Shown here piece by piece: positions 3,419-59,644 of a stretch of DNA of 64,000 bases; the stretch's first letter is position 1; each line of letters starts with the position of its first letter. The DNA is taken from NCBI GenBank assembly GCA_963758635.1, contig CAVWWD010000003.1, positions 288,001-352,000 of the forward strand, written 5' to 3'. The translations under genes and the position numbers were made by a program. A model generated the notes under the pieces. It did not search any database, was not told where the DNA came from, and saw nothing but the letters and a program-made list of their open reading frames with translations. The DNA comes from an uncultured Candidatus Rokubacteria bacterium (GTDB taxonomy: Bacteria; Methylomirabilota; Methylomirabilia; Rokubacteriales; CSP1-6).

Positions 3419-3561
3419 TGCAGTGCGAGCCGCAGCCGCGTGAAGTGCGAGCCGCAGCCGCAGGCGAGGCGAGCGTATATGGAAATGCAGTGGAACCGAC
3501 CGTCAAGCGCCGAAATGCAGTGGAAGCGACCGTCAGGAACTGCAGCGACCGACCGCCAACC
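3419..3561 (+). repeat. Family A palindromic element with partial tandem copies
   Basis: GCAGTGCGAGCCGCAGCCGC twice, then TATATGGAAATGCAGTGGAACCGACC and GAAATGCAGTGGAAGCGACC; matches copies at 27.0, 44.3, 57.3 and 58.3 kb. Confidence 0.85.
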
Positions 3562-9272: not shown

Positions 9273-9365
9273 GTCTTCGGAGGGTTGGCGGTAGGTTCCA
9301 CTGCCTGATCATGTCCCCCCTCACCCAACCCTCTCCCCCCGGCGGGGAGAGGGCTTCGGAGGTTA
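9273..9365 (-). repeat. Family B palindromic element (CCCTCTCCC...GGGAGAGGG hairpin plus GGCAGTGGAAC end)
   Basis: Reverse complement is nearly identical to the 78-bp unit at 20138-20288; begins directly after the nuoN TAA. Confidence 0.88.
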
Positions 9366-18662: not shown

Positions 18663-18740
18663 CGAGCCCCGCGCATCAGACCAATGCCGAGCGGTGGGAC
18701 TGTAGAGGCCCGTGGCCGCTCCCGCATTCTGCGGGGGTCA
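18663..18740 (-). mobile_element. Family C MITE-like element (about 78 bp)
   Basis: Reverse complement aligns with 43749-43827 and 47541-47619 (core GCCACGGGCCTCTAC...TCCCACC); terminal inverted repeats. Confidence 0.8.
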
Positions 18741-18790
18741 CTAGCGTGGCGCGGAGCCGCATCATCCCCCTTCGGAACGGAGGTTTCACC

Positions 18791-20124
18791 ATGCGTCGAG
18801 CATCGTCGCCGTCGCACCGCGTCCTCGTCGCGCTCGTCGTCCTCGGCGCGGCGCTCCTCGTGGCCGGCCCCGCCGCCGCCCAGAAGACGGAGATCCACTT
18901 CTGGCACGCGATGGGCGGGCAGCTCGGGGAGACGGTGAACGAGCTGGTCCGGCAGTTCAACGCCAGCCAGCAGTCGTACGAGGTCAAGGCGCTGAACAAG
19001 GGCACGTATCCCGAGGTGCTCACCTCGGCCATCGCCGCGTACCGCCAGAAGAACCCGCCCCACCTCGTGCAGTTCTTCGACGTCGGGACGCAGACGATGC
19101 TGATGTCGGGGGCGATCTACCCCGTCTACCAGCTCATGAAGGAGCAGGAGGTCCCGATCAACTGGGGCGACTTCATCAAGCCGGTCTCGGCGTACTACTC
19201 GAAGGACGGGAACCTCTACTCGATGCCGTTCAACTCGTCGAGCCCGATCCTCTACTACAACAAGGAGATGTTCAAGAAGGCCGGGCTCGACCCGGCCAAG
19301 CCGCCGGCGACGTGGAAGGACGTCGGGCGAGCTACTCGAAGAAGATCCTCGCCGCCGGCGCGGCCAAGTGCGGCTTCACCACGTCGTGGCCGTCGTGGAC
19401 GATGCTCGAGAACACGTTCCCCTGGCACGACCAGCCCTTCGCCACCAACGGAAACGGCTATTCGGGGCTCGACACCAAGCTCCTCATCAACGGCGAGTTC
19501 GGGGTCAAGCACATCGGCCAGCTCGCGGCCTGGCAGAAGGACAACGTGTACTCCTACGGCGGCCGCATGGGCCAGCCCGATCCCAAGTTCATCAACGGCG
19601 ACTGCGCCATGCTGATCCAGTCCTCCGCGGTCATCGGCGGGTTCAAGAAGTCGGTGAAGTTCGAGTGGGGGACGGGCCAGCTCCCGCACTGGGGCGCGCC
19701 GTACAAGAAGCAGAACGCCATCGTGGGCGGCGGCACGCTCTGGGTGATGAAGGGGCAGAAGGCCGCCGACTACAAGGGCGTCGGCCAGTTCCTGAAGTTC
19801 GTCTCCGATCCCCACCAGCAGATGTGGTGGAGCGTCACCACCGGCTACGTGCCGATCACGCAGACCGCCATCAAGAACCTCGAGGCCGGCTACCACTTCA
19901 AGAAGAACCCCGAGCAGTGGACGGCCCTGTCCCAGCTGAGCGGCACGCCCACCGCCAACAGCCGCGGGCATCGCCTCGGCAACATGGCGCAGATCCGCGA
20001 CGCGATCGAGCCGGAGCTCGAGCAGGTGTTCGCGGGCAAGAAGTCGGCCAAGGAAGGCCTGGACGCCGCGGTGGCCAAGGGCAACGAGATCCTGAAAGAG
20101 TTCGCGGCCGCCAACAAGCCGTAG
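18791..20124 (+). CDS. ugpB: sn-glycerol-3-phosphate ABC transporter substrate-binding protein (frameshift near 19325)
   Basis: Signal peptide, IHFWHAMGG, FNASQ, SMPFNSSSPILYYNK, GGGTLWV, TGYVPIT. Confidence 0.9.
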
Positions 20125-20137
20125 GAACAGCCACGCA

Positions 20138-20288
20138 CCCTCCGAAGCCCTCTCCCCGCGAGGGGAGAGGGTTGGGTGAGGGGGGACATGGTCAGGCAGT
20201 GGAAACAACCGCCACCCCTCCGAAGCCCTCTCCCCGCGAGGGGAGAGGGTTGGGTGAGGGGGGAGATGATCAGGCAGTGGAAACAACC
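20138..20288 (+). repeat. Family B element, two tandem copies, period 78 bp
   Basis: CCTCCGAAGCCCTCTCCCCGCGAGGGGAGAGGGTTGGGTGAGGGGGGA(C/G)ATG(G/A)TCAGGCAGTGGAAACAACC; TCCGAAG at 20141 and 20219. Confidence 0.93.
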
Positions 20289-20322
20289 GGAACCTAACCG
20301 TGAACCTCCGAACGGCAGACGC

Positions 20323-26966: not shown

Positions 26967-27052
26967 CTTGCGAAGCGAGCCGGCATGCTTTGCGGAGCGA
27001 GCCGAAGGCGAGCGGAGCGCATATGGAAATGAAGTGGAAACAACCGCCAACC
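26967..27052 (+). repeat. Family A element
   Basis: TGCGGAGCGAGCCGAAGGCGAGCGGAGCGCATATGGAAATGAAGTGGAAACAACC just after the permease stop. Confidence 0.88.
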
Positions 27053-36049: not shown

Positions 36050-36255
36050 GACCTCGGCGCTCGGCGCCCGAGGCGCCGCGTCGAACGCCCGTGTCGCGCC
36101 TCGCTTCGACTCCGCCGGGCTCGAGCCCCGGTGGGCCCATCCGCTGCCCGAGGAACCCACGCTTCGAGGTCTGGACGATTGAACAGTCGCCGCCCTGCTG
36201 CGCGTGAGCCTGACGGGACGGGTGCCGGCGGCGCGTCGGTCCTCGCCCCGGTTAG

Positions 36256-36348
36256 GTTGTGAAGGAATGCGGCTTTTGTCGTCGGCGAGCGGGCCAACAT
36301 TGCGATTCTGCGTACACGCGGAGCGCCGTCTCGCCATCGATTCACATT
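36256..36348 (+). mobile_element. Family E MITE-like element (93 bp)
   Basis: GTTGTGAAG...GCGGGCCAACA..GCGATTCTGCGTACAC..GCCGTCTC...TTCACA; homologous to 41568, 41671 and 51643 copies. Confidence 0.8.
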
Positions 36349-40279: not shown

Positions 40280-41574
40280 TCCGCCGGCTCGACACGCGGA
40301 CCGCCGGCGTCGACGGCGTCGTGCGCGCCCTGGAACGGCCGCCCGCCGCGGTCGACCCGGGCATCCAGCAGCAGGTGGCGGAGATCCTGGCCGCGGTGCG
40401 CGAGAAGGGCGACGCCGCGCTCGTCGAGCTGACCGAGCGCTTCGACGGCGTCCGCCTCGAGCCGGCCGGCCTCCCGGTCACCGAAGCCGAGATGGACGCG
40501 GCGGCGCGCCAGGTCGCGCCCGAGACCATGGCGGCCCTGGCGTACGCGGCCGGGCGGATCGAGGCGTTCCATCGCGCGGCGATGCCGCGCTCCTGGTCCA
40601 TGACGGACGCCGCCGGCTCGCGCCTCGGGCAGGACGTGCGGCCGCTCGACCGCGTCGGCATCTACGTGCCGGGCGGCCGCGCCGCCTATCCGTCCACGGT
40701 CCTCATGACCGCCGTGCCCGCGCGCGTGGCGGGGGTCCGGGAGATCGTCCTCGTCTCGCCGCCCGGCCGCGACGGCGCGCTCTCGCCCGTCGTGCTCGCG
40801 GCGGCGCGGCTGGCCGGAGTCACCGAGGCGTACCGCGTGGGCGGCGCCCAGGCCGTGGCCGCGCTCGCCTACGGCACGGCCACCGTGCGCCGCGTCGACA
40901 AGATCGTGGGCCCGGGCAACGTGTACGTCACGCTCGCCAAGGCCCGGGTCTTCGGCGAAGTCGGGATCGACATGCTGGCGGGGCCCAGCGAGGTGCTGGT
41001 GATCGCCGACGAGGGCGCGGACCCGACGCTTGCCGCCGCGGACCTGCTCGCCCAGGCGGAGCACGACCCGATGGCGCGCGCCGTGCTCGTCACGCCATCC
41101 GAGCGCCTGGCCGATCGCGTGGTCGCGGAGACCCAGCGCCAGCTCGGCGACCTGCCGCGCCGGGAGATCGCGGCCGCCGCGCTCGCCGCGAACGGCGCCG
41201 TGGTCCTCGTGGCCGGGCTCGGCGAGGCCGTGGAGCTCGCCAACCGCCTCGCTCCCGAGCACCTGGAGCTGCTCGTGGCCGATCCGGAGGCGCTCCTGCC
41301 GCGCGTGCGGCACGCCGGCGCGGTGTTCCTTGGGGCGGCCACGCCGGAGGTGGTCGGAGACTACGTGGCGGGACCGGACCACGTGCTGCCCACCGCGGGC
41401 ACGGCGCGCTTCTCGTCGGCGCTCAGCACCGAGGACTTCGTCACGCGGCTCAGCGTGATCCGATACTCGGCCGAGGGGCTCGAGGAAGCGTGGCCGCACC
41501 TGGCCGAGCTCGCGAGGGTGGAAGGGCTGGCCGGGCACGCGACGGCCGCTTCGGTCCGCATGAAGAGGTTGTGA
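40276..41574 (+). CDS. hisD: Histidinol dehydrogenase
   Basis: GIYVPGGRAAYPSTVLM, GGAQAVAALAYGT, GPGN, AGPSE, QAEHD, APEHLE. Confidence 0.97.
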   Translation: MIRRLDTRTAGVDGVVRALERPPAAVDPGIQQQVAEILAAVREKGDAALVELTERFDGVRLEPAGLPVTEAEMDAAARQVAPETMAALAYAAGRIEAFHRAAMPRSWSMTDAAGSRLGQDVRPLDRVGIYVPGGRAAYPSTVLMTAVPARVAGVREIVLVSPPGRDGALSPVVLAAARLAGVTEAYRVGGAQAVAALAYGTATVRRVDKIVGPGNVYVTLAKARVFGEVGIDMLAGPSEVLVIADEGADPTLAAADLLAQAEHDPMARAVLVTPSERLADRVVAETQRQLGDLPRREIAAAALAANGAVVLVAGLGEAVELANRLAPEHLELLVADPEALLPRVRHAGAVFLGAATPEVVGDYVAGPDHVLPTAGTARFSSALSTEDFVTRLSVIRYSAEGLEEAWPHLAELARVEGLAGHATAASVRMKRL

Positions 41575-41773
41575 AGGGATGCGGATCTTGACTTCGCCAT
41601 GCGGGGCAACACCGCGAGTCTGCGTACACACGCGGCGCCGTCTCGCCATTCCTTCGGTCCGCATGAAGAGGTTGTGAAGGGATGCGGATCTTGACTTCGC
41701 CATGCGGGGCAACACCGCGAGTCTGCGTACACACGCGGCGCCGTCTCGCCATTCCTTCGGTCCGCATGAAGAG
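41549..41773 (+). repeat. Tandem 103-bp duplication carrying two family E elements
   Basis: TCGGTCCGCATGAAGAGG at 41551, 41654 and 41757; the two full units are identical. Confidence 0.95.
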
Positions 41774-43029: not shown

Positions 43030-43748
43030 CGTTCACGATCATCCCGGCCATCGACCTGCGCTCCGGCCGCTGCGTGCGCCTGCGCCAGGGCCGCGCGGAG
43101 GACGAGACGGTGTTCTCCGACGACCCCGTGGCGACGGCGCGGCGCTGGCAGTCCGAGGGCGCGGCGCGCCTGCACGTGGTGGACCTCGACGGCGCCTTCG
43201 CGGGCCGCCCGGCGCAGACGGAGCTGGTGCGGTCGATCATCGCGGCGCTCGGCGTCCCGGCGCAGGTGGGCGGCGGCCTGCGCGACGTCCCCGCGGTGGA
43301 GGCGGTGCTGGAGGCGGGGGCGCGCTGGGCCGTGGTGGGCACGCGGGCCGCGCTCGATCCCGCCTTCCTCGGCGAGGTCTGCGGCGCATTCGAGGACCGG
43401 ATCATCGTGGCCGTCGACGCCACCGACGGGCGCGTGGCGGTGGACGGCTGGCGGCGCGTCCTCGACCTCGACGCGACGGCGCTGGCCCGCGACGCGGCGG
43501 CGGCCGGCGCGGCGGCGATCCTCTACACGGACATCGCGCGCGACGGGACCGAGGCGGGGCCCAACCTGTGGAGCACCGAGGCGGTGGCGCGGGCCGCGGG
43601 CATCCCGCTCCTCGCCTCGGGAGGCGTGGGCTCGCTCGAGGACCTCCACCAGCTCGCCAATCTCCAGGGCGTGGAGGGCGTGATCGTCGGCCGCGCGCTC
43701 TACTCCGGGGCCATCGACCTCCGTCGCGCCCAGGCCCAGGTCGGCTAA
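43026..43748 (+). CDS. hisA: ProFAR isomerase
   Basis: [44 protein letters not shown]. Confidence 0.96.
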
Positions 43749-43827
43749 TGATCCTCGCGGAATATGGTAACCGCCACGGGCCTCTACCAATCCCACCGCT
43801 CGGCATGAGTCTAATGCGCGAGGCTTA
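43749..43827 (+). mobile_element. Family C MITE-like element
   Basis: TGATCCTCGC...GCGAGGCTTA ends, core GGTAACCGCCACGGGCCTCTAC, TA dinucleotides 1 nt outside each end. Confidence 0.82.
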
Positions 43828-43839
43828 CTAGGGGGCGCG

Positions 43840-44768
43840 ATGCTCGCCAAGCGCGTCATCCCCTGCCTCGACGTCCAGGGCGGCCGCGTCGTCAAGGGCG
43901 TCCGGTTCGTCGAGCTCCGGGACGCCGGCGACCCGGTCGAGGCGGCCCGCGCGTACGACGCGCAGGGCGCCGATGAGCTGGTGTTCCTCGACATCGCGGC
44001 CTCGCACGAGGGGCGCGCCACCATGCTCGACGTCGTGCGCCGGACCGCGGAGGGCGTGTACATGCCGGTGACGGTGGGCGGCGGCGTCGGGAGCCTGGAC
44101 GACGTCCGGACGCTGCTCCGCGCCGGCGCCGACAAGGTCTCGCTGAACACCGCGGCCCTCGCGCGTCCCGAGCTGATCATGGACGCCGCGCGCGCGTTCG
44201 GCAGCCAGTGCATCGTGGTGGCCATCGACGCCAAGCGCGAGGCTGTGGCAGTGCGAAGCGAGCCGAAGGCGAGCGGAGCGCACGTGGCAGTGCGAAGCGA
44301 GCCGAAGGCGAGCGGAGCGCACGTGGCAGTGCGAAGCGAGCCGAAGGCGAGCGGAGCGCACATGGAAATGCCGTGGAAACGACCGGCGGCCGAGGGGAGG
44401 GGCTGGAGCCGCCGCGCTGGGGCGTCTACACGCACGGCGGCCGGCGCCCCGCGGGCCGCGACGCGCTCGCGTGGGCCCGTGAGGTCGAGACGCTCGGCGC
44501 CGGCGAGATCCTGCTGACGAGCATGGACCGCGACGGCACCGGCGCCGGCTACGACCTCGAGCTGACGCGCGCGGTGTCCGAGGCGGTCGGCATTCCCGTG
44601 ATCGCCTCCGGGGGCGCGGGAACGCTGGCCCACCTGGCCGACGGCGTCACCGAGGGCAAGGCGGACGCCGTGCTCGTGGCCTCGATCTTCCACTTCGGGC
44701 AGCACACGGTGGGCGAGGCCAAGCGCTACCTCCGGGAGCGCGGCGTGCCCGTGCGGATCGACACATGA
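43840..44768 (+). CDS. hisF: Imidazole glycerol phosphate synthase cyclase subunit, with repeat insertion and one frameshift near 44395
   Basis: [36 protein letters not shown] in first frame; [34 protein letters not shown] in second frame. Confidence 0.95.
44245..44384 (+). repeat. Family A element, 3 x 39 bp tandem plus 3' end, inside hisF
   Basis: GTGGCAGTGCGAAGCGAGCCGAAGGCGAGCGGAGCGCAC at 44245, 44284 and 44323, then ATGGAAATGCCGTGGAAACGACC. Confidence 0.96.
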
Positions 44769-46745: not shown

Positions 46746-47490
46746 ATGGCTCCCCTGGTCGAGGTGCGCGAGGTGTGGAAGTCGTTCGACGGCCGGCCCG
46801 TGCTGCGCGGGATCAGCCTCGACCTGGTCAAGGGCACGACGCTCGCGGTGATGGGCGGCAGCGGCAGCGGCAAGACCGTGCTCCTGCGCATCATCGAGGG
46901 CCTGATCCGGCCCGACGCGGGCACGGTGGCGCTCTTCGGCACGCGCATCGACAACATGCGGGAGGAGCAGATGCTCCCCGTGCGGCGGCGCACCGGGTTC
47001 GTGTTCCAGGGCGCGGCGCTGTTCGACTCGATGTCCGTGTTCGAGAACGTCGCCTTCCCGTTGCGCGAGCACACGCGCCTGTCGCTCGGCGAGATCACCG
47101 ACCGCGTGCACCGCTTCCTCGGGCTGGTGGGCCTCTCGGGCCGGGACGACGTGCTCCCCGCGGAGCTGTCCGGCGGGATGCGCAAGCGCGTGGGAATCGC
47201 GCGCGCGCTCGTCACCGAGCCGGAGGTCGTGTTCTTCGACGAGCCCACCGCGGGGCTCGATCCCACCAACGCGCGGCTCGTCGGCGAGCTCATCGCCGAG
47301 CTCCGCGCGGGCGTGGCCGACACCGCCATCGTCGTCACCCACGACATCGAGTTCGCGGACATGGTGGCGGACGCCATGGCCATCCTGTACCACGGCCAGT
47401 TCGCGGCCATCGGCACTCCCGGCGGAGATCCACGCCTCCGGCAACGACGCCGTCCGGAAGTTCCTCGCCGGGGAGCTGCGCGAAGGATGA
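46746..47490 (+). CDS. mlaF: MlaF-family ABC ATPase (frameshift near 47420)
   Basis: GGSGSGKT, FQGAALFDSM, LSGGMRKRV, DEPTAGLDP, VTHD; C-terminus ..VRKFLAGELREG* in shifted frame. Confidence 0.9.
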
Positions 47491-47540
47491 GCGGCGTGGC
47501 GACGCGACGGCCGACGGCCCGTGGGGCACGGGGACGCTGA

Positions 47541-47619
47541 TGAGTCTCGCAGAATACGGTAACCGCCACGGGCCTCTACAATCCCACCTGTGCGGCGTTC
47601 GTCTGACGCGCGAGGCTCA
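47541..47619 (+). mobile_element. Family C MITE-like element
   Basis: TGAGTCTCGC...GCGAGGCTCA terminal inverted repeats; same core as the 43749 copy. Confidence 0.82.
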
Positions 47620-47623
47620 ATAG

Positions 47624-51642: not shown

Positions 51643-51735
51643 GTCGTGGATCGACGTTGAGACGGCCGCGCATGTGGACGCTGAATCGCGGTGTTGGCCC
51701 GCACGGTGAGGTCAAGGTCCGCGCTGCTTCACAAC
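51643..51735 (-). mobile_element. Family E MITE-like element (93 bp)
   Basis: Reverse complement GTTGTGAAG..GCGGACCTTGAC..GCGGGCCAACACCGCGATTCAGCGTCCAC..GCCGTCTC..TCCACGAC. Confidence 0.8.
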
Positions 51736-51751
51736 GTCGGAGGAGAGGCTC

Positions 51752-53982: not shown

Positions 53983-54057
53983 GCTGGCGTAGCTCAGGGG
54001 TAGAGCAACTGCCTTGTAAGCAGTGGGTCGGGGGTTCAAATCCTCCCGCCAGCGCCA
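53983..54057 (+). tRNA. tRNA-Thr(TGT)
   Basis: Acceptor GCTGGCG/CGCCAGC, anticodon loop CTTGTAA, GGTTCAAATCC, CCA. Confidence 0.95.
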
Positions 54058-54091
54058 GCTTTTCCGGGAGGTTAGCCGTCGGGCACGGGCC

Positions 54092-54177
54092 GGGGAGATA
54101 CCCAAGTGGCCAAAGGGGGCAGACTGTAAATCTGCTGGCGGACGCCTTCGGGGGTTCAAATCCTCCTCTCCCCACCA
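54092..54177 (+). tRNA. tRNA-Tyr(GTA)
   Basis: Acceptor GGGGAGA/TCTCCCC, loop CTGTAAA, long variable arm, CCA. Confidence 0.95.
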
Positions 54178-54213
54178 GCCCAGCTCGGGGGCGTGATGGC
54201 GGCTCGGGGGCGA

Positions 54214-54288
54214 GCGGGAATAGCTCAGCGGTAGAGCGCCAGCCTTCCAAGCTGGGGGTCGCGGGTTCGAATCCCGTTTCCCGCTCCA
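54214..54288 (+). tRNA. tRNA-Gly(TCC)
   Basis: Acceptor GCGGGAA/TTCCCGC, loop CTTCCAA, GGTTCGAATCC, CCA. Confidence 0.95.
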
Positions 54289-54347
54289 TCGCCGCCTCGT
54301 GGCCACGAGGCGGGCGCTCGCTCACGACGACGACGATCGACATTCGG

Positions 54348-54423
54348 GCCCATGTAGCTCAGTTGGCAGAGCGCGTCCTTGGTAAGGACGAGGTCTCCGG
54401 TTCAAGCCCGGACATGGGCTCCA
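54348..54423 (+). tRNA. tRNA-Thr(GGT)
   Basis: Acceptor GCCCATG/CATGGGC, loop TTGGTAA, GGTTCAAGCCC, CCA. Confidence 0.95.
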
Positions 54424-54450
54424 TTTCGCCGGACATGGGCTCCACTTCGC
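54408..54450 (+). repeat. Direct duplication of tRNA-Thr 3' end (period 21 bp)
   Basis: CCGGACATGGGCTCCA(T/C)TTCGC at 54408 and 54429. Confidence 0.9.
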
Positions 54451-54513
54451 TGGTTCGGCACGCGCGACCCTGGGCAGTCGAACGCACCACGTAGGACGGA
54501 GGAGGATTCTCGG

Positions 54514-55710
54514 ATGGCCAAGGCGAAGTTCGATCGGACGAAGCCGCACGTGAACATCGGGACGATTGGGCACATCGATCACGGGAAGACGACGTTGACG
54601 AGTGCGATTACGAAGGTGCTGCACACGAAGTACAGCGGGGTGGCGGTGCGGGACTTTGGGACGATCGACAACGCGCCGGAAGAGCGGGAGCGGGGGATCA
54701 CGATCGCGGTGTCGCACGTGGAGTACGAGACGGGGAACCGGCACTACGCGCACATCGACTGTCCGGGGCACGCGGACTACATCAAGAACATGATCACGGG
54801 GGCGGCGCAGATGGACGGGGCGATCCTCGTGGTGGCGGCGAACGATGGGCCGATGCCGCAGACGCGGGAGCACGTGTTGCTGGCGCGGCAGGTGAATGTG
54901 CCGAGCCTGGTGGTGTTCATGAACAAGGTGGACATGGTGGATGATCCGGAGATTTTGGACCTGGTGGAGCTGGAGGTGCGGGAGTTGCTGAAGAAGTACC
55001 AGTTCCCGGGGGACGACATCCCGGTGGTGCGGGGCAGCGCGCTGGGGGCGATGGAGAAGCCGGAGGACGCGACGGCGTCGAAGTGCATCTGGGAGCTGAT
55101 GGAGGCGGTGGACAGCTACATTCCGACGCCGCCGCGGCCGGTGGACAAGCCGTTTTTGATGCCGATCGAGGACATATTCACGATCACGGGGCGGGGGACG
55201 GTGGTGACGGGGCGGGTGGAGCGGGGGATCGTGAAGGTGGGGGAAGAGATCGAGATCGTGGGGATGCAGGAGGCGACGCGGAAGTCGGTGGTGACGGGGG
55301 TGGAGATGTTCCGGAAGCTGCTGGACGAGGGGCGGGCGGGGGACAACATCGGGGCGTTGCTGCGGGGGGTGGACAAGGACGAGGTGGAGCGGGGGCAGGT
55401 GCTGGCGAAGCCGGGGTCGATCAAGCCGCACAAGAAGTTCAAGGCGGAGGTGTACGTGCTGGGGAAGGACGAGGGGGGGCGGCACACGCCGTTTTTCAAC
55501 GGGTACCGGCCGCAGTTCTACTTTCGGACGACGGACGTGACGGGGGTGTGCACGCTGCCGAGTGGGGTGGAGATGGTGATGCCGGGGGACAACGTGACGA
55601 TGGCGATCGAGCTGATCCAGCCGATCGCGATGGAGAAGGAGCTGCGGTTCGCGATCCGGGAGGGGGGACGGACGGTGGGAGCGGGCGTCGTGGCGGAGAT
55701 CGCGGAGTAG
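54514..55710 (+). CDS. tuf: Elongation factor Tu
   Basis: [57 protein letters not shown]. Confidence 0.99.
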
Positions 55711-55713
55711 GTC

Positions 55714-55863
55714 ATGCGCGACGGCATCTCCTTGGCGTGCACGACATGCCAGCGACGCAACTACGCGACCACCAAGAACCGGCGCACGCATCCCGATCGC
55801 CTGGAGCTCAAGAAGTTCTGCAAGTGGTGCCGTAAGCACACTCCCCACCGGGAGTCGAAATAG
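55714..55863 (+). CDS. rpmG: 50S ribosomal protein L33 (Zn-binding form; below ORF-track cutoff)
   Basis: Hand-translated: [49 protein letters not shown]. Confidence 0.95.
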
Positions 55864-55915
55864 ACAACGCGGGCGCTGGCCCATTGTCCTAAGGGCCAAT
55901 TGTCCGAACGTTTCT

Positions 55916-55992
55916 AGGCGTGTAGCTCTAACGGCTAGAGCACCGGACTCCAAATCCGGGGGATGGGGGTTCGAATCCCTCCACGCCTGCCA
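55916..55992 (+). tRNA. tRNA-Trp(CCA)
   Basis: Acceptor AGGCGTG/CACGCCT, loop CTCCAAA, GGTTCGAATCC, CCA; canonical position between rpmG and secE. Confidence 0.95.
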
Positions 55993-56821: not shown

Positions 56822-57256
56822 ATGGCGAAGAAGGTCCAGGCGATGGTGAAGCTGCAGATCCCCGCGGGCAAGGCCAACCCCTCGCCCCCGGTGGGACCCG
56901 CGCTCGGCCAGCACGGGGTCAACATCATGGAGTTCTGCAAGGGCTTCAACGCCCAGACGAACTCGCAGGAGGGCCTGATCCTGCCCGTGGTGGTCACGAT
57001 CTTCCAGGACCGGTCGTTCACCTTCGTGGTGAAGACGCCGCCCGCCGCGGTGCTCCTGAAGCGCGCGGCGGGGATCGCCAAGGCGTCGGCGGTGCCCCAC
57101 AAGGACAAGATCGGCCAGGTGACGCGCGCCCAGGTCCGCGAGATCGCCCAGACCAAGCTCGTCGACCTGAACACCGACTCCATCGACTCCGCCATGCGCA
57201 CCGTCGAAGGCACCGCCCGCAGCATGGGGATTGATGTGGTCGGTGCTGTGAGGTGA
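56822..57256 (+). CDS. rplK: 50S ribosomal protein L11
   Basis: [43 protein letters not shown]. Confidence 0.98.
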
Positions 57257-57491
57257 GCGCGAAGCGCGAGCCGAACGAACATGGAAATGCAGTGGAAACG
57301 ACCAGAACCCGACGAGAGCCGGCGCGATCGAGAGCCGGCCGTGGCAGTGCGAGGTGAGCGCGAAGCGCGAGCCGAGCGAACATGGAAATGCAGTGGAAAC
57401 GACCGAGAGCCGCGACGAGAGCCGGCCGTGGCAGTGCGAGGTGAGCGCGAAGCGCGAGCCGAGCGTATATGGAAATGCAGTGGAAACAACC
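57243..57491 (+). repeat. Family A array: three about 60-bp repeats with 41- and 27-bp related spacers
   Basis: GTGGCAGTGCGAGGTGAGCGCGAAGCGCGAGCCGAGCG(AAC/TAT)ATGGAAATGCAGTGGAAAC at 57341-57400 and 57428-57487, plus a 5'-degenerate copy ending 57299. Confidence 0.95.
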
Positions 57492-57520
57492 GAAACGCGG
57501 CCTGAGAGGAGCGCACTGAC

Positions 57521-58228
57521 ATGCCGACCATGACCAAGCGCGAGAAGGCGGCGAGCGCCGCCTACGACCGGGAGAAGGAATATCCGGTCGAAGAGGCGCT
57601 CGGCGTCCTGAACCAGCTGCCGAAGGCGAAGTTCGACGAGACGGTCGATCTGTCGATGCGGCTCGGCGTCGATCCCAAGCACGCGGACCAGATGGTCCGC
57701 GGCGCCATCGTCCTGCCCCACGGCATCGGCAAGGCCGTGCGCGTGGCGGTGTTCGCCAAGGGCGAAAAGGAGCGCGAGGCGCGCGAGGCCGGCGCGGACG
57801 TGGTCGGCGCCGAGGATCTCGTCGAGCGGATCCAGGGGGGCTGGCTCGACTTCGACTCGGCGGTGGCCACCCCGGACCTCATGGGCCAGGTGGGCCGACT
57901 CGGCAAGGTGCTCGGTCCGCGCGGGCTCATGCCCAACCCGAAGCTCGGCACGGTGACGTTCGACGTCGGGCGCGCGGTGCGCGAGGTGAAGGCGGGCAAG
58001 GTGGAGTTCCGGGTGGACAAGGCCGGCAACGTGCACGTGCCCATCGGGAAGCGCTCGTTCACGCCGGAGGCCCTCGTGGACAACGCCCTCGCCCTCCTCG
58101 AGGCGGTCGTCCGGGCCAAGCCCTCGGCCTCGAAGGGCACGTACCTGCGGTCGATCACGCTGTCCTCGACCATGAGCCCCGGCATCAAGGTCGACGCCCA
58201 GCGCATCGCCGCGCAGTTCAAGCGGTAG
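57521..58228 (+). CDS. rplA: 50S ribosomal protein L1
   Basis: [46 protein letters not shown]. Confidence 0.98.
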
Positions 58229-58392
58229 TGCGCAGCGAGCCGAAGGCGAGCGGAGCGCATATGGAAATGCAGTGGAAGCGACGCAGCGCCGAGCGCACAT
58301 GGAAATGCAGTGGAAACGACCGCAGCGCCGCCGGACGCGTTGCGGGGACGGCAGTGGAAACAACCGCAGCGCCGTCGAACGCGTTGCGGGTC
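58229..58392 (+). repeat. Family A element with progressively truncated tandem copies
   Basis: GCAGTGGAA at about 58269, 58307 and 58351; CGCAGCGCCG and ACGCGTTGCGGG linkers repeated. Confidence 0.9.
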
Positions 58393-58454: not shown

Positions 58455-59202
58455 GTGCCGAACGCAGCGAAGGCCGAGACGATCGAGTCGCTGAAGCAGC
58501 GGCTCGACGGCGCGCACAGCGCCGTGCTGACCGACTACCGCGGACTGACCGTCCGCCAGATCTCCGACCTGCGGAAGCAGCTCAAGGGCGCGGCCGCGGA
58601 GTACAAGGTGGTCAAGAATCGCCTGGCCGCCCTCGCCGTCCGAGGGGGCGCTCTCGACGCCATCGCGCCGCACCTGAAGGGCCCCGTCGGTCTGGCGTTC
58701 ACCAAGCAGGACCCGGTGGCGGTGGCCAAGGCGCTCCAGGTCTTCGTTCGCGCGAACCCGACCTTCACGATCAGGCTCGGCCTGGTCGAGGGGAAGGTGG
58801 TGCCGCCCGAGGGACTCCGCTCGCTCGCCGAGCTGCCGTCGAAGGAGGCGCTCCGGAGCCAGCTGGTCGGCGCCCTCGAGGGCCCGATGTCGCAGATCGT
58901 GAGCCTGCTGCAGGCCCCGATGCGCGACCTGGCCTACATCCTCTCCGAGCGGAGCAAGCAGGAGGGGGCCGCGCCGGCCGCACCGGCGGCGGAGCCGGTG
59001 GCCGCTGCGGCCGCGAGCGCGGAGCCGGCAGCAGAAGCCGCGGCCGCGCCGGCCGCGAGCGCGGAGCCGGCAGCGGAAGCGCCGGCCGAAGCGGCGCCGA
59101 GCGCGGAGCCGCCGAGCGCGGAGCCAGGCGAGCGCAGGCAGCCGCGAGCGCGGAGCGGCGAGCGCGGAGCCCGCGGGCGAGGCGCCCGCGACGAGCGCGT
59201 AG
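58455..59202 (+). CDS. rplJ: 50S ribosomal protein L10 with Ala/Glu/Pro-rich tail (frameshift within tail)
   Basis: DYRGLTV, LRKQL, VVKNRL, LKGP, LAELPS; probable end [13 protein letters not shown] at TAG 59200-59202. Confidence 0.93.
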
Positions 59203-59259
59203 CAAGGGACAGGACCGAGTCGATCACGCAGTCGAACCAATTCACTGGAGGCTCAGGAC

Positions 59260-59644
59260 ATGGCGACGAACATCGAGGAGATTGCCGAGAAGCTGGACTC
59301 GCTGACCCTGCTGGAGGCGTCCCAGCTCTCGAAGCTCTTGCAGGAGAAGTGGGGCGTCTCGGCGGCGGCGGCGGTGGCGGTGGCCGCTCCGGCGGCGGGC
59401 GGCGGCCGCGGGTGCCGCGGTGGCCGAGGAGAAGACGGAGTTCGACGTCATCCTGTCCGCGGCCGGCGAGAAGAAGATCCAGGTCATCAAGGTGGTGCGC
59501 GAGCTGACGGGCCTCGGTCTGAAGGAGGCGAAGGACCTCGTCGACGGTGCCCCGAAGGCCGTGAAGGAGAAGATCGCGAAGGCCGAGGCCGCGGACGTCA
59601 AGAAGAAGCTCGAGGAGGTCGGCGCCGTCGTCGAGGTCAAGTAG
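59260..59644 (+). CDS. rplL: 50S ribosomal protein L7/L12 (frameshift in the hinge near 59400)
   Basis: [20 protein letters not shown], then [34 protein letters not shown]. Confidence 0.96.

Follow-up and report, generated by a model that had tools for sequence, protein, structure and literature searches.

The window—the whole 64,000-nt stretch of DNA analysed here (G000:C3:288001-352000)—belongs to a 6.17 Mb assembly in 12 contigs (G000), with 71% GC and 87% completeness, which is the sole member of its own genus among the genomes searched. We take it to be a Rokubacteria genome: NCBI assigns a HisF that is identical over the N-terminal 132 residues to Candidatus Rokuibacteriota, and in the comparison with 80 mostly distant genomes the two closest named loci are Rokubacteria. 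Its contig sizes (12 contigs for 6.2 Mb) suggest that the assembly was made from long reads. The gene of interest, hisF, has neighbours that we read as hisH, hisA, and hisIE; the names hisH and hisIE are presumed from the translations, and the hisA neighbour matches PF00977. A Pfam profile search of the assembly finds this one hisF and no second. A repetitive insert divides the gene, and related copies of the repeat lie elsewhere in the window; the coordinates are collected in Table 1.

Table 1. The hisF gene, its insert, and related repeat copies in the window (window positions).
Feature	Position	Strand	Remarks
hisF 5' part, codons 1-135	43840..44244	+	carries the AIDAK motif (Asp130); the insert is preceded by two extra codons
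Repeat unit 1	44245..44283	+	39 nt: head and GA-mismatch hairpin; 13 codons
Repeat unit 2	44284..44322	+	exact copy of unit 1
Repeat unit 3	44323..44361	+	exact copy; unit 3 and tail make one whole 63-nt element
Element 3' tail, MEMPWKRP	44362..44385	+	conserved, non-palindromic, 24 nt
Remainder of hisF loop	44386..44417	+	includes G-run 44392-44402; assembly likely one base short here
hisF 3' part, 116 codons from WGVY	44418..44768	+	other frame in assembly; 96% identical to empty-site allele P0009
Dispersed element copy	3444..3502	+	
Dispersed element copy	26984..27049	+	
Three tandem variant copies	57242..57492	+	the upstream ribosomal protein gene (read as rplK) takes its stop codon from the first copy
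Element copy and repeated tail	58222..58335	+	stop codon of the upstream gene (read as rplA) falls within the head

The insert follows the AIDAKR motif and consists, as the initial annotation described it, of three exact 39-bp units and a MEMPWKRP tail, stop-free in the hisF frame throughout 44245-44385. The open frame in itself is no evidence: none of the three sense frames of the insert contains a stop, and of 5000 shuffled versions of these 147 nt, 43% likewise lack stops in any one chosen frame. In the assembly hisF is spread over two frames, with matches to the Pfam family His_biosynth (PF00977) at positions 1-147 and 134-227. The distance from the Arg codon after AIDAK to the Trp codon of WGVY is 182 nt; by arithmetic, one more base gives the 309-aa HisF that had been proposed. 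Within the insert, the first 10 nt of the tail are identical to the unit head at 7/10 positions, 39 nt apart. A five-base direct repeat flanks the insert; we do not call it a target duplication, since the family to which the insert belongs has no duplication signal.

That family was defined with a profile built from 71 seed copies, which gives 162 matches at 122 loci in G000 against 1 in the reversed genome. The element is 63 nt long, with a hairpin between a short head and an unpaired tail; its full pattern is present 74 times in G000. The copies first noted at 3.4, 27.0, 57.3, and 58.3 kb are real (the last two at 57.2-57.5 and 58.2-58.3 kb), and their description as intergenic breaks down for those at 57-58 kb, which supply stop codons of genes that we take, from their translations, to be rplK and rplA. 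The full pattern was found in 0/250 other genomes of the phylum and weak partial matches, mostly to the hairpin half, in 11/60 relatives, which together point to a recent, narrow expansion of a wider hairpin type. The family is thus a genus-restricted hairpin-plus-tail repeat, and it is new—a literature search on Rokubacteria and Methylomirabilota repeats, intragenic palindromic repeats in hisF, and GA-type single-stranded DNA motifs, covering few subscription journals, found no report of it.

Covariation in the hairpin was followed in 70 copies, chosen by a pattern that fixes the GCC-GNA-GGC tip, the GA dinucleotides, and part of the tail. Among these the free middle pair of the 3-bp arm is G-C in 46 and C-G in 23, with 1 exception, and the middle base of the loop is free. 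The mutual information of the middle pair was reached by 0/1000 shuffles, a figure that is overstated because the copies are related. We read the hairpin as holding two tandem G-A mismatches and as forming on one strand only; tandem G-A motifs are stable in single-stranded DNA. Of the selfish palindrome originally proposed, the dispersed repeat stands; the palindrome is imperfect, and the standard folding energy of the element is no better than that of shuffles (z 0.5 to 1.5 for 5/5 sequences). The tail also occurs after a different, perfect hairpin in 3 of the 82 tail matches in the genome (window 20115-20302, plus strand, and 9275-9346, minus strand), and it looks like a swappable module.

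Searches for the usual marks of mobility gave little. Terminal inverted repeats were not found, the longest head-tail complement being only 3-5 nt in 66/66 copies, and apparent target-site duplications (14/66 copies) match the shuffle mean of 14.9. The Y1 transposase profile PF01797 (Y1 HUH, RAYT) has no match in the 87% complete G000, and a control search matched 6/14 genomes. Two IS110-type transposase matches are present in G000; no link was made between these and the element.

Most of the copies follow closely after genes of the same strand. Where a coding frame lies just upstream (72 loci), the element is on the same strand in 59 and on the opposite strand in 13; the other 50/122 loci have no close upstream coding frame by a crude codon score. 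The gene's stop codon lies inside the element at 13 loci; besides the 3 clearly gene-internal loci, ~24 overlap or extend 3' ends on the same strand. A strand bias that goes with local GC skew (77/122 loci) may only reflect gene orientation. Local tandem duplication is seen at 34/122 loci against 1/122 random stretches, and exact tandem arrays of the element reach ~7 units elsewhere in G000; the tandem period is a multiple of three in 16/34 loci, not much more than one third. An ATG is present in the tail in 37/42, and one mini-frame of an element ends 1 nt before the next start codon; tail frames stop near the downstream start in 8/25, against 9/31 and 7/28 for the other frames, and so show no excess coupling.

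These observations could be read differently, with the repeat as a host-serving RNA element—a 3' end hairpin or a MIRU-like translational bridge—spread by recombination, and the hisF copy as a by-product. The same-strand excess behind genes, the ATG in the tail, and the mini-frame that stops just short of a start codon would fit such a role; however, no coupling signal is seen, Rfam finds only tRNAs and two sub-threshold matches on tRNAs in 40-60 kb, where 5 or more copies lie, and the absence of the full element from the 250 other genomes fits a recent burst better than a conserved function. We consider this reading rather unlikely; it concerns the role of the family and is compatible with the explanation of hisF that we prefer. 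A bolder proposal would make the element the first-seen member of a class of mobile hairpins of single-stranded DNA, each held by two tandem G-A mismatches and a GNA loop and ending in a swappable 3' tail. Lacking terminal repeats, a target duplication, and a REP tag, such hairpins would insert where short homology to the target guides them. They would keep adding new peptide to the HisF loop, whichever of the three frames is read, with the unit number as a fast contingency switch beside the catalytic Asp; the proposal as a whole strikes us as distinctly improbable.

Other alleles are found among homologous proteins. Queried with the insert region, a protein search gave 543 HisF-like proteins; the best 120 were taken and 110 parsed, a set biased toward the query; the loop is 7-13 aa long in 101 of them and 18-46 aa in 9. 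The element is present in four of these nine. P0003 has one unit in a 33-aa loop and is a full-length, intact protein of 281 aa with its frame open; P0002 has two units in frame in a 46-aa loop, in a partial record that diverges near the C-terminal end and is perhaps a chimeric contig end. One unit in a second frame is found in P0004 (32-aa loop), which is in frame through the loop and broken further on. In P0015, with a 33-aa loop and an N-half that is 88% identical, the peptide matches the third frame, as known from the protein alone. P0002, P0003, and P0004 are single-member clusters, known as protein records.

The empty site is represented by P0009, which has 0 units in a 9-aa loop and is identical to the window hisF at 98.5% over the N-half and 96% over the 3' part; alleles of the 0/1/2-unit series share 97-100% identity over the N-terminal 132 residues. 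Loop lengths of 33, 46, and 61 aa correspond to 13 per unit, with two extra codons in the window (46+13+2; 61 with one more base). The initial annotation had suggested looking for empty-site alleles in close relatives and had proposed a unit number varying in 13-aa steps, and both are found: 0 units in P0009, 1 in P0003, 2 in P0002, and 3 in the window with one more base. No intact three-unit allele was found. A search with the second-frame peptide among longer proteins gave P0004 only, which is weak evidence. Pattern scans for sequences that link hisF to the element found a single chance match in metagenome contigs (L055, which is not hisF), none in genome contigs, and none in 158 other genomes of the family.

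The same loop has received other repeats. Among the relatives' loci (n=29: the best 30 of 60 matching genomes, minus its own), 26/29 have loops of 5-12 aa (24 parsed, 2 read by eye), and in G003 the frame is broken in the loop, which has no insert. G023 (27 aa) and G033 (63 aa), from two related genera, have long loops in frame, and their inserts are dispersed repeats of their own genomes, with 93% and 77-88% matches elsewhere; the G023 repeat has its head and GA design in common with the window family. Repeats of several kinds in one HisF loop suggest a tolerant landing site that has been used repeatedly, and the tolerance of length variation assumed at the outset is borne out by loops of 5-63 aa across relatives and records. 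A further 80 mostly distant genomes gave 72 parsed loops, of which 70 measure 5-11 aa; the other two, of 31 and 35 aa, come from Nitrospirae (L126, L168) and are related loops at the same site, distinct from the window repeat. The other five of the nine long loops found in the protein search are local duplications of host sequence. All five (P0014, P0037, P0067, P0097, P0113) have a loop grown by a 5-residue tandem duplication of the host DAKRE, and clusters of 11 and 6 members include lengths of 255, 266, and 271.

The excerpted text of PMC11350729 gives catalytic roles to Asp11 and Asp130 in HisF and places the catalytic Asp130 of the Thermotoga enzyme on strand 5. Both residues are invariant in 32/32 aligned proteins, and the insert begins three residues after Asp130. 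PDB matches to P0003 are split at residues 135/166. An AlphaFold2 model of P0003 (one unit; 32-row alignment) has a mean pLDDT of 81 and a pTM of 0.82, and two of the five models scored only 62 and 56; residues 137-160, between strands 125-133 and 166-170, have pLDDT <50, and the barrel is kept. The insert is accordingly predicted to form a disordered surface loop on an intact barrel, in a model of the one-unit rather than the three-unit allele.

In P0002 and P0003 the last part of the loop reads E-G-x-G-x-E-P-P-R, a register that the window shares only if one base is added in 44389-44410. The initial annotation had placed the break as a missing G in the G-run at 44392-44402; the homologue register does need exactly one more base there, but the window alone could not place the break, and short-read contigs miss 44390-44399. 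The short-read evidence consists of Logan contigs of 4 runs, the best DNA runs of which may be the source sample. A 60-nt record over the unit-unit junction has 0 differences in 2/4 runs, and a 63-nt record from hisF into unit 1 has 1 substitution and no gap in 1/4 runs; both supporting contigs have 30 letters on the shorter side, one below the bridging rule. Gap-free records resume at 44411 and 44414, and 44390-44399 is covered by no contig in 4/4 runs, which is not evidence either way.

The junction contigs, coming from separate short-read contig sets, make it unlikely that the insert is a misassembly—the outcome that the initial annotation had named as refuting it—and confine the break to ~44353-44410. 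The short-read check of 44385-44405 that had been suggested supports the insert and the unit junction and leaves 44390-44399 uncovered. Empty-looking joints in the short-read contigs, probably from other species, were left out, and the insert was not seen in the listed RNA-run pieces.

As an assembly control, 289 ORFs taken from 20 stretches of relatives were set against G000. Sixty conserved genes remained after filtering; over their 22,748 codons there are 13 frame breaks, which fall in 10/60 of the genes (11 breaks in 8 genes once two doubtful queries are left out). Genes that we take to be mfd, nuoM, and citrate synthase are among those broken. With at least 8/60 conserved genes carrying frame breaks, an assembly error is likely in hisF as well. 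At the average of 0.16-0.19 breaks per kb, an error would fall in a given 60-nt stretch with a chance of only ~1%, barring a higher local rate. Of the control breaks, 3/11 are close to a run of at least 4 equal bases, against a background of 29%, so homopolymers are not special in the errors of G000. The frame is also broken at the same HisF loop, in the absence of the insert, in three other long-contig records (L003, P0031, and P0059), and both halves of the window hisF are without stops or decay relative to P0009. On these sequence comparisons, the one-base break is likely an assembly error.

The insertion could instead be real, and in frame in relatives, with the hisF of the window strain truly broken where the G-run has lost one base, which would make it a pseudogene or the OFF state of a phase-variable gene. 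The assembly does show the break, the short-read contigs leave the G-run uncovered, G-runs beside unstable repeats can slip, and a copy in a dnaE2-like gene is also broken in or beside the element; however, that gene has a second, unrelated break, 8-10/60 conserved genes are frame-broken in G000, there is no second hisF, and halves so close to the intact P0009 (96-97%) show no stops or decay. A true break is, we judge, very unlikely. That the three units are an assembly or consensus artefact of a mixed population, in which cells carry one or two, is hardly credible: the intact alleles found do have one or two units, the three units are exact, and the junction contig has only ~1.4-1.5x flank depth in runs X1 and X2 (a depth that is not a copy number), but the junction occurs in separate contig sets, exact arrays of up to ~7 units exist elsewhere in G000, and a long read, if long reads were indeed used, would span 170 nt.

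Clearly gene-internal copies are rare, with 3/122 loci: hisF, an ArnT-like gene, and the dnaE2-like gene. In the ArnT-like PMT_2 gene the frame stays open through two tandem 57-nt copies, and the insert is absent from the 7 closest of 11 aligned relatives. At this site (L051:2120-2240; G000:C5:85120-85237) several relatives have a native MPWR, VPWR, or VPWG that resembles the MEMPWK tail, a hint of homology-guided insertion or a coincidence. The dnaE2-like gene, which we presume to be such from its sequence (the fragment has no Pfam match), contains a single copy, and its frame is broken by one base in or next to the element; 8/9 relatives were parsed, and the element is absent from 8/8. This gene (L053:1340-4933, on G000:C8), where the second, unrelated frame break lies, presumably also holds an intein-like segment (C...HN ends). 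An antisense match in a CrtC-like gene is weak and was not counted as an invasion. The wider search for invaded proteins suggested earlier thus yielded the ArnT-like and dnaE2-like genes within G000, and little beyond it: a HMMER profile of the repeat peptide against 1.84 billion representatives gave 11 matches, none with a Pfam match. These are mostly short spurious ORFs, with two apparently fused to the start of real-looking genes; 50%-identity representatives would hide invaded alleles, and the 11 are no count of invaded families.

Several known systems offer points of comparison. The MIRU of mycobacteria lie at gene junctions, vary in tandem copy number, and hold an internal ATG; the window family is similar in these respects and in size, and differs in that overlap of its stop with the start of the following gene is not in excess. 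Bacterial MITEs (RUP, Correia, ERIC) are, in the excerpts of PMC3184786, small non-coding dispersed repeats able to fuse to ORFs. The window family is likewise small, non-coding, dispersed, and ORF-fusing, but has neither terminal inverted repeats nor target duplication above shuffles.

The closest precedents are the Rickettsia palindromic elements (RPEs) and the GTAG/CGTC REPs. As excerpted in PMC10969869 and PMC3184786, RPEs (RPE-1 and others; Ogata et al. 2000, 2002) are palindromic and occur both between genes and in frame inside unrelated housekeeping genes; the precedent invoked in the initial annotation, of non-coding repeats as in-frame inserts, is therefore in print. The window family is likewise a dispersed, lineage-restricted palindromic repeat, found between genes and in frame in unrelated housekeeping genes in a way predicted to be compatible with the fold. 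The host frame is open in P0003, P0002, and the ArnT-like gene, and the window hisF is one base short in the assembly. The differences are in length (63 nt here against ~105-150 nt in the excerpted RPEs of PMC3184786, a comparison of length), in the share of clearly internal loci (3/122 here against nearly half of RPEs in that material), in form (an imperfect GA-mismatch hairpin with an unpaired tail and 39-nt stacking steps), and in host, which here is a free-living soil lineage.

GTAG/CGTC REPs, in the excerpts of Di Nocera et al. (2013, PMC3733652), lie mostly just behind genes, with ends that often give the stop codon, and are sometimes wholly inside ORFs, singly or in groups, contributing 20-82 aa, with dnaE2 among the targets. 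The window family shares the short hairpin repeats mostly behind genes, the stop codon inside the element, and the invasion of dnaE2. In contrast, a GTAG-like head (GTAGT) is found in only 3/70 copies and CGTC is absent from the 12 commonest heads, and head-to-head dimers are nearly lacking (1/122 loci with both strands). A Y1 tyrosine transposase was not found in the 87% complete G000. By analogy, the HisF repeat would work like RPEs and intragenic REPs; the repeat family is new, and in-gene repeat insertion is a kind of event already known.

Taken as a whole, our preferred reading is that a 63-nt repeat entered the HisF loop, was stacked by slippage, and is translated in a working 309-residue enzyme, the break being a sequencing error; we hold this to be probable, and translation of the insert is likely. 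The element would have landed in the β-hairpin loop after HisF strand 5. Copies may land at many sites, those inside genes persisting only if they change the length by a multiple of three and lie in a tolerant loop; mobilisation by a trans-acting enzyme that recognises the single-stranded hairpin is our guess. The three hisF units were likely stacked by slippage: the similarity of unit head and tail start would provide a route by slipped-strand mispairing between similar 10-mers flanking the hairpin, in 39-nt steps that keep the frame. The repeat peptide may be a floppy surface loop carried as neutral cargo.

What makes the locus valuable is an unusually clean natural series—0, 1, 2, and 3 units, in at least two, probably three, reading frames—in which non-coding DNA appears to become part of a model enzyme's protein sequence, three residues past a catalytic one. 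Since an E. coli hisF mutant can be complemented with HisF (excerpt of PMC4565649), the neutrality of such inserts, often assumed and rarely tested, is directly testable. The locus also serves as a warning, as gene callers cut the window hisF to 225 aa.

The window has other features of note. A second repeat family of ~85-100 nt (43733-43831, 47525-47623, and 18665-18747) starts at a stop codon and ends in CTAG or similar, and one of its copies fills part of the gap from hisA to hisF. An exact 103-bp tandem duplication (41549-41754) separates the genes read as hisD and hisB, with diverged copies at 36237-36339 and 51646-51738. Two further frame breaks are probable: one in an ABC ATPase near its end (46746-47540), and one where the gene read as rplJ runs into rplL after an Ala/Glu/Pro-rich 42-nt repeat (58455-59507). 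Five tRNA genes (Thr, Tyr, Gly, Thr, Trp) at 53983-55992, around a gene read as tuf, are ordinary.
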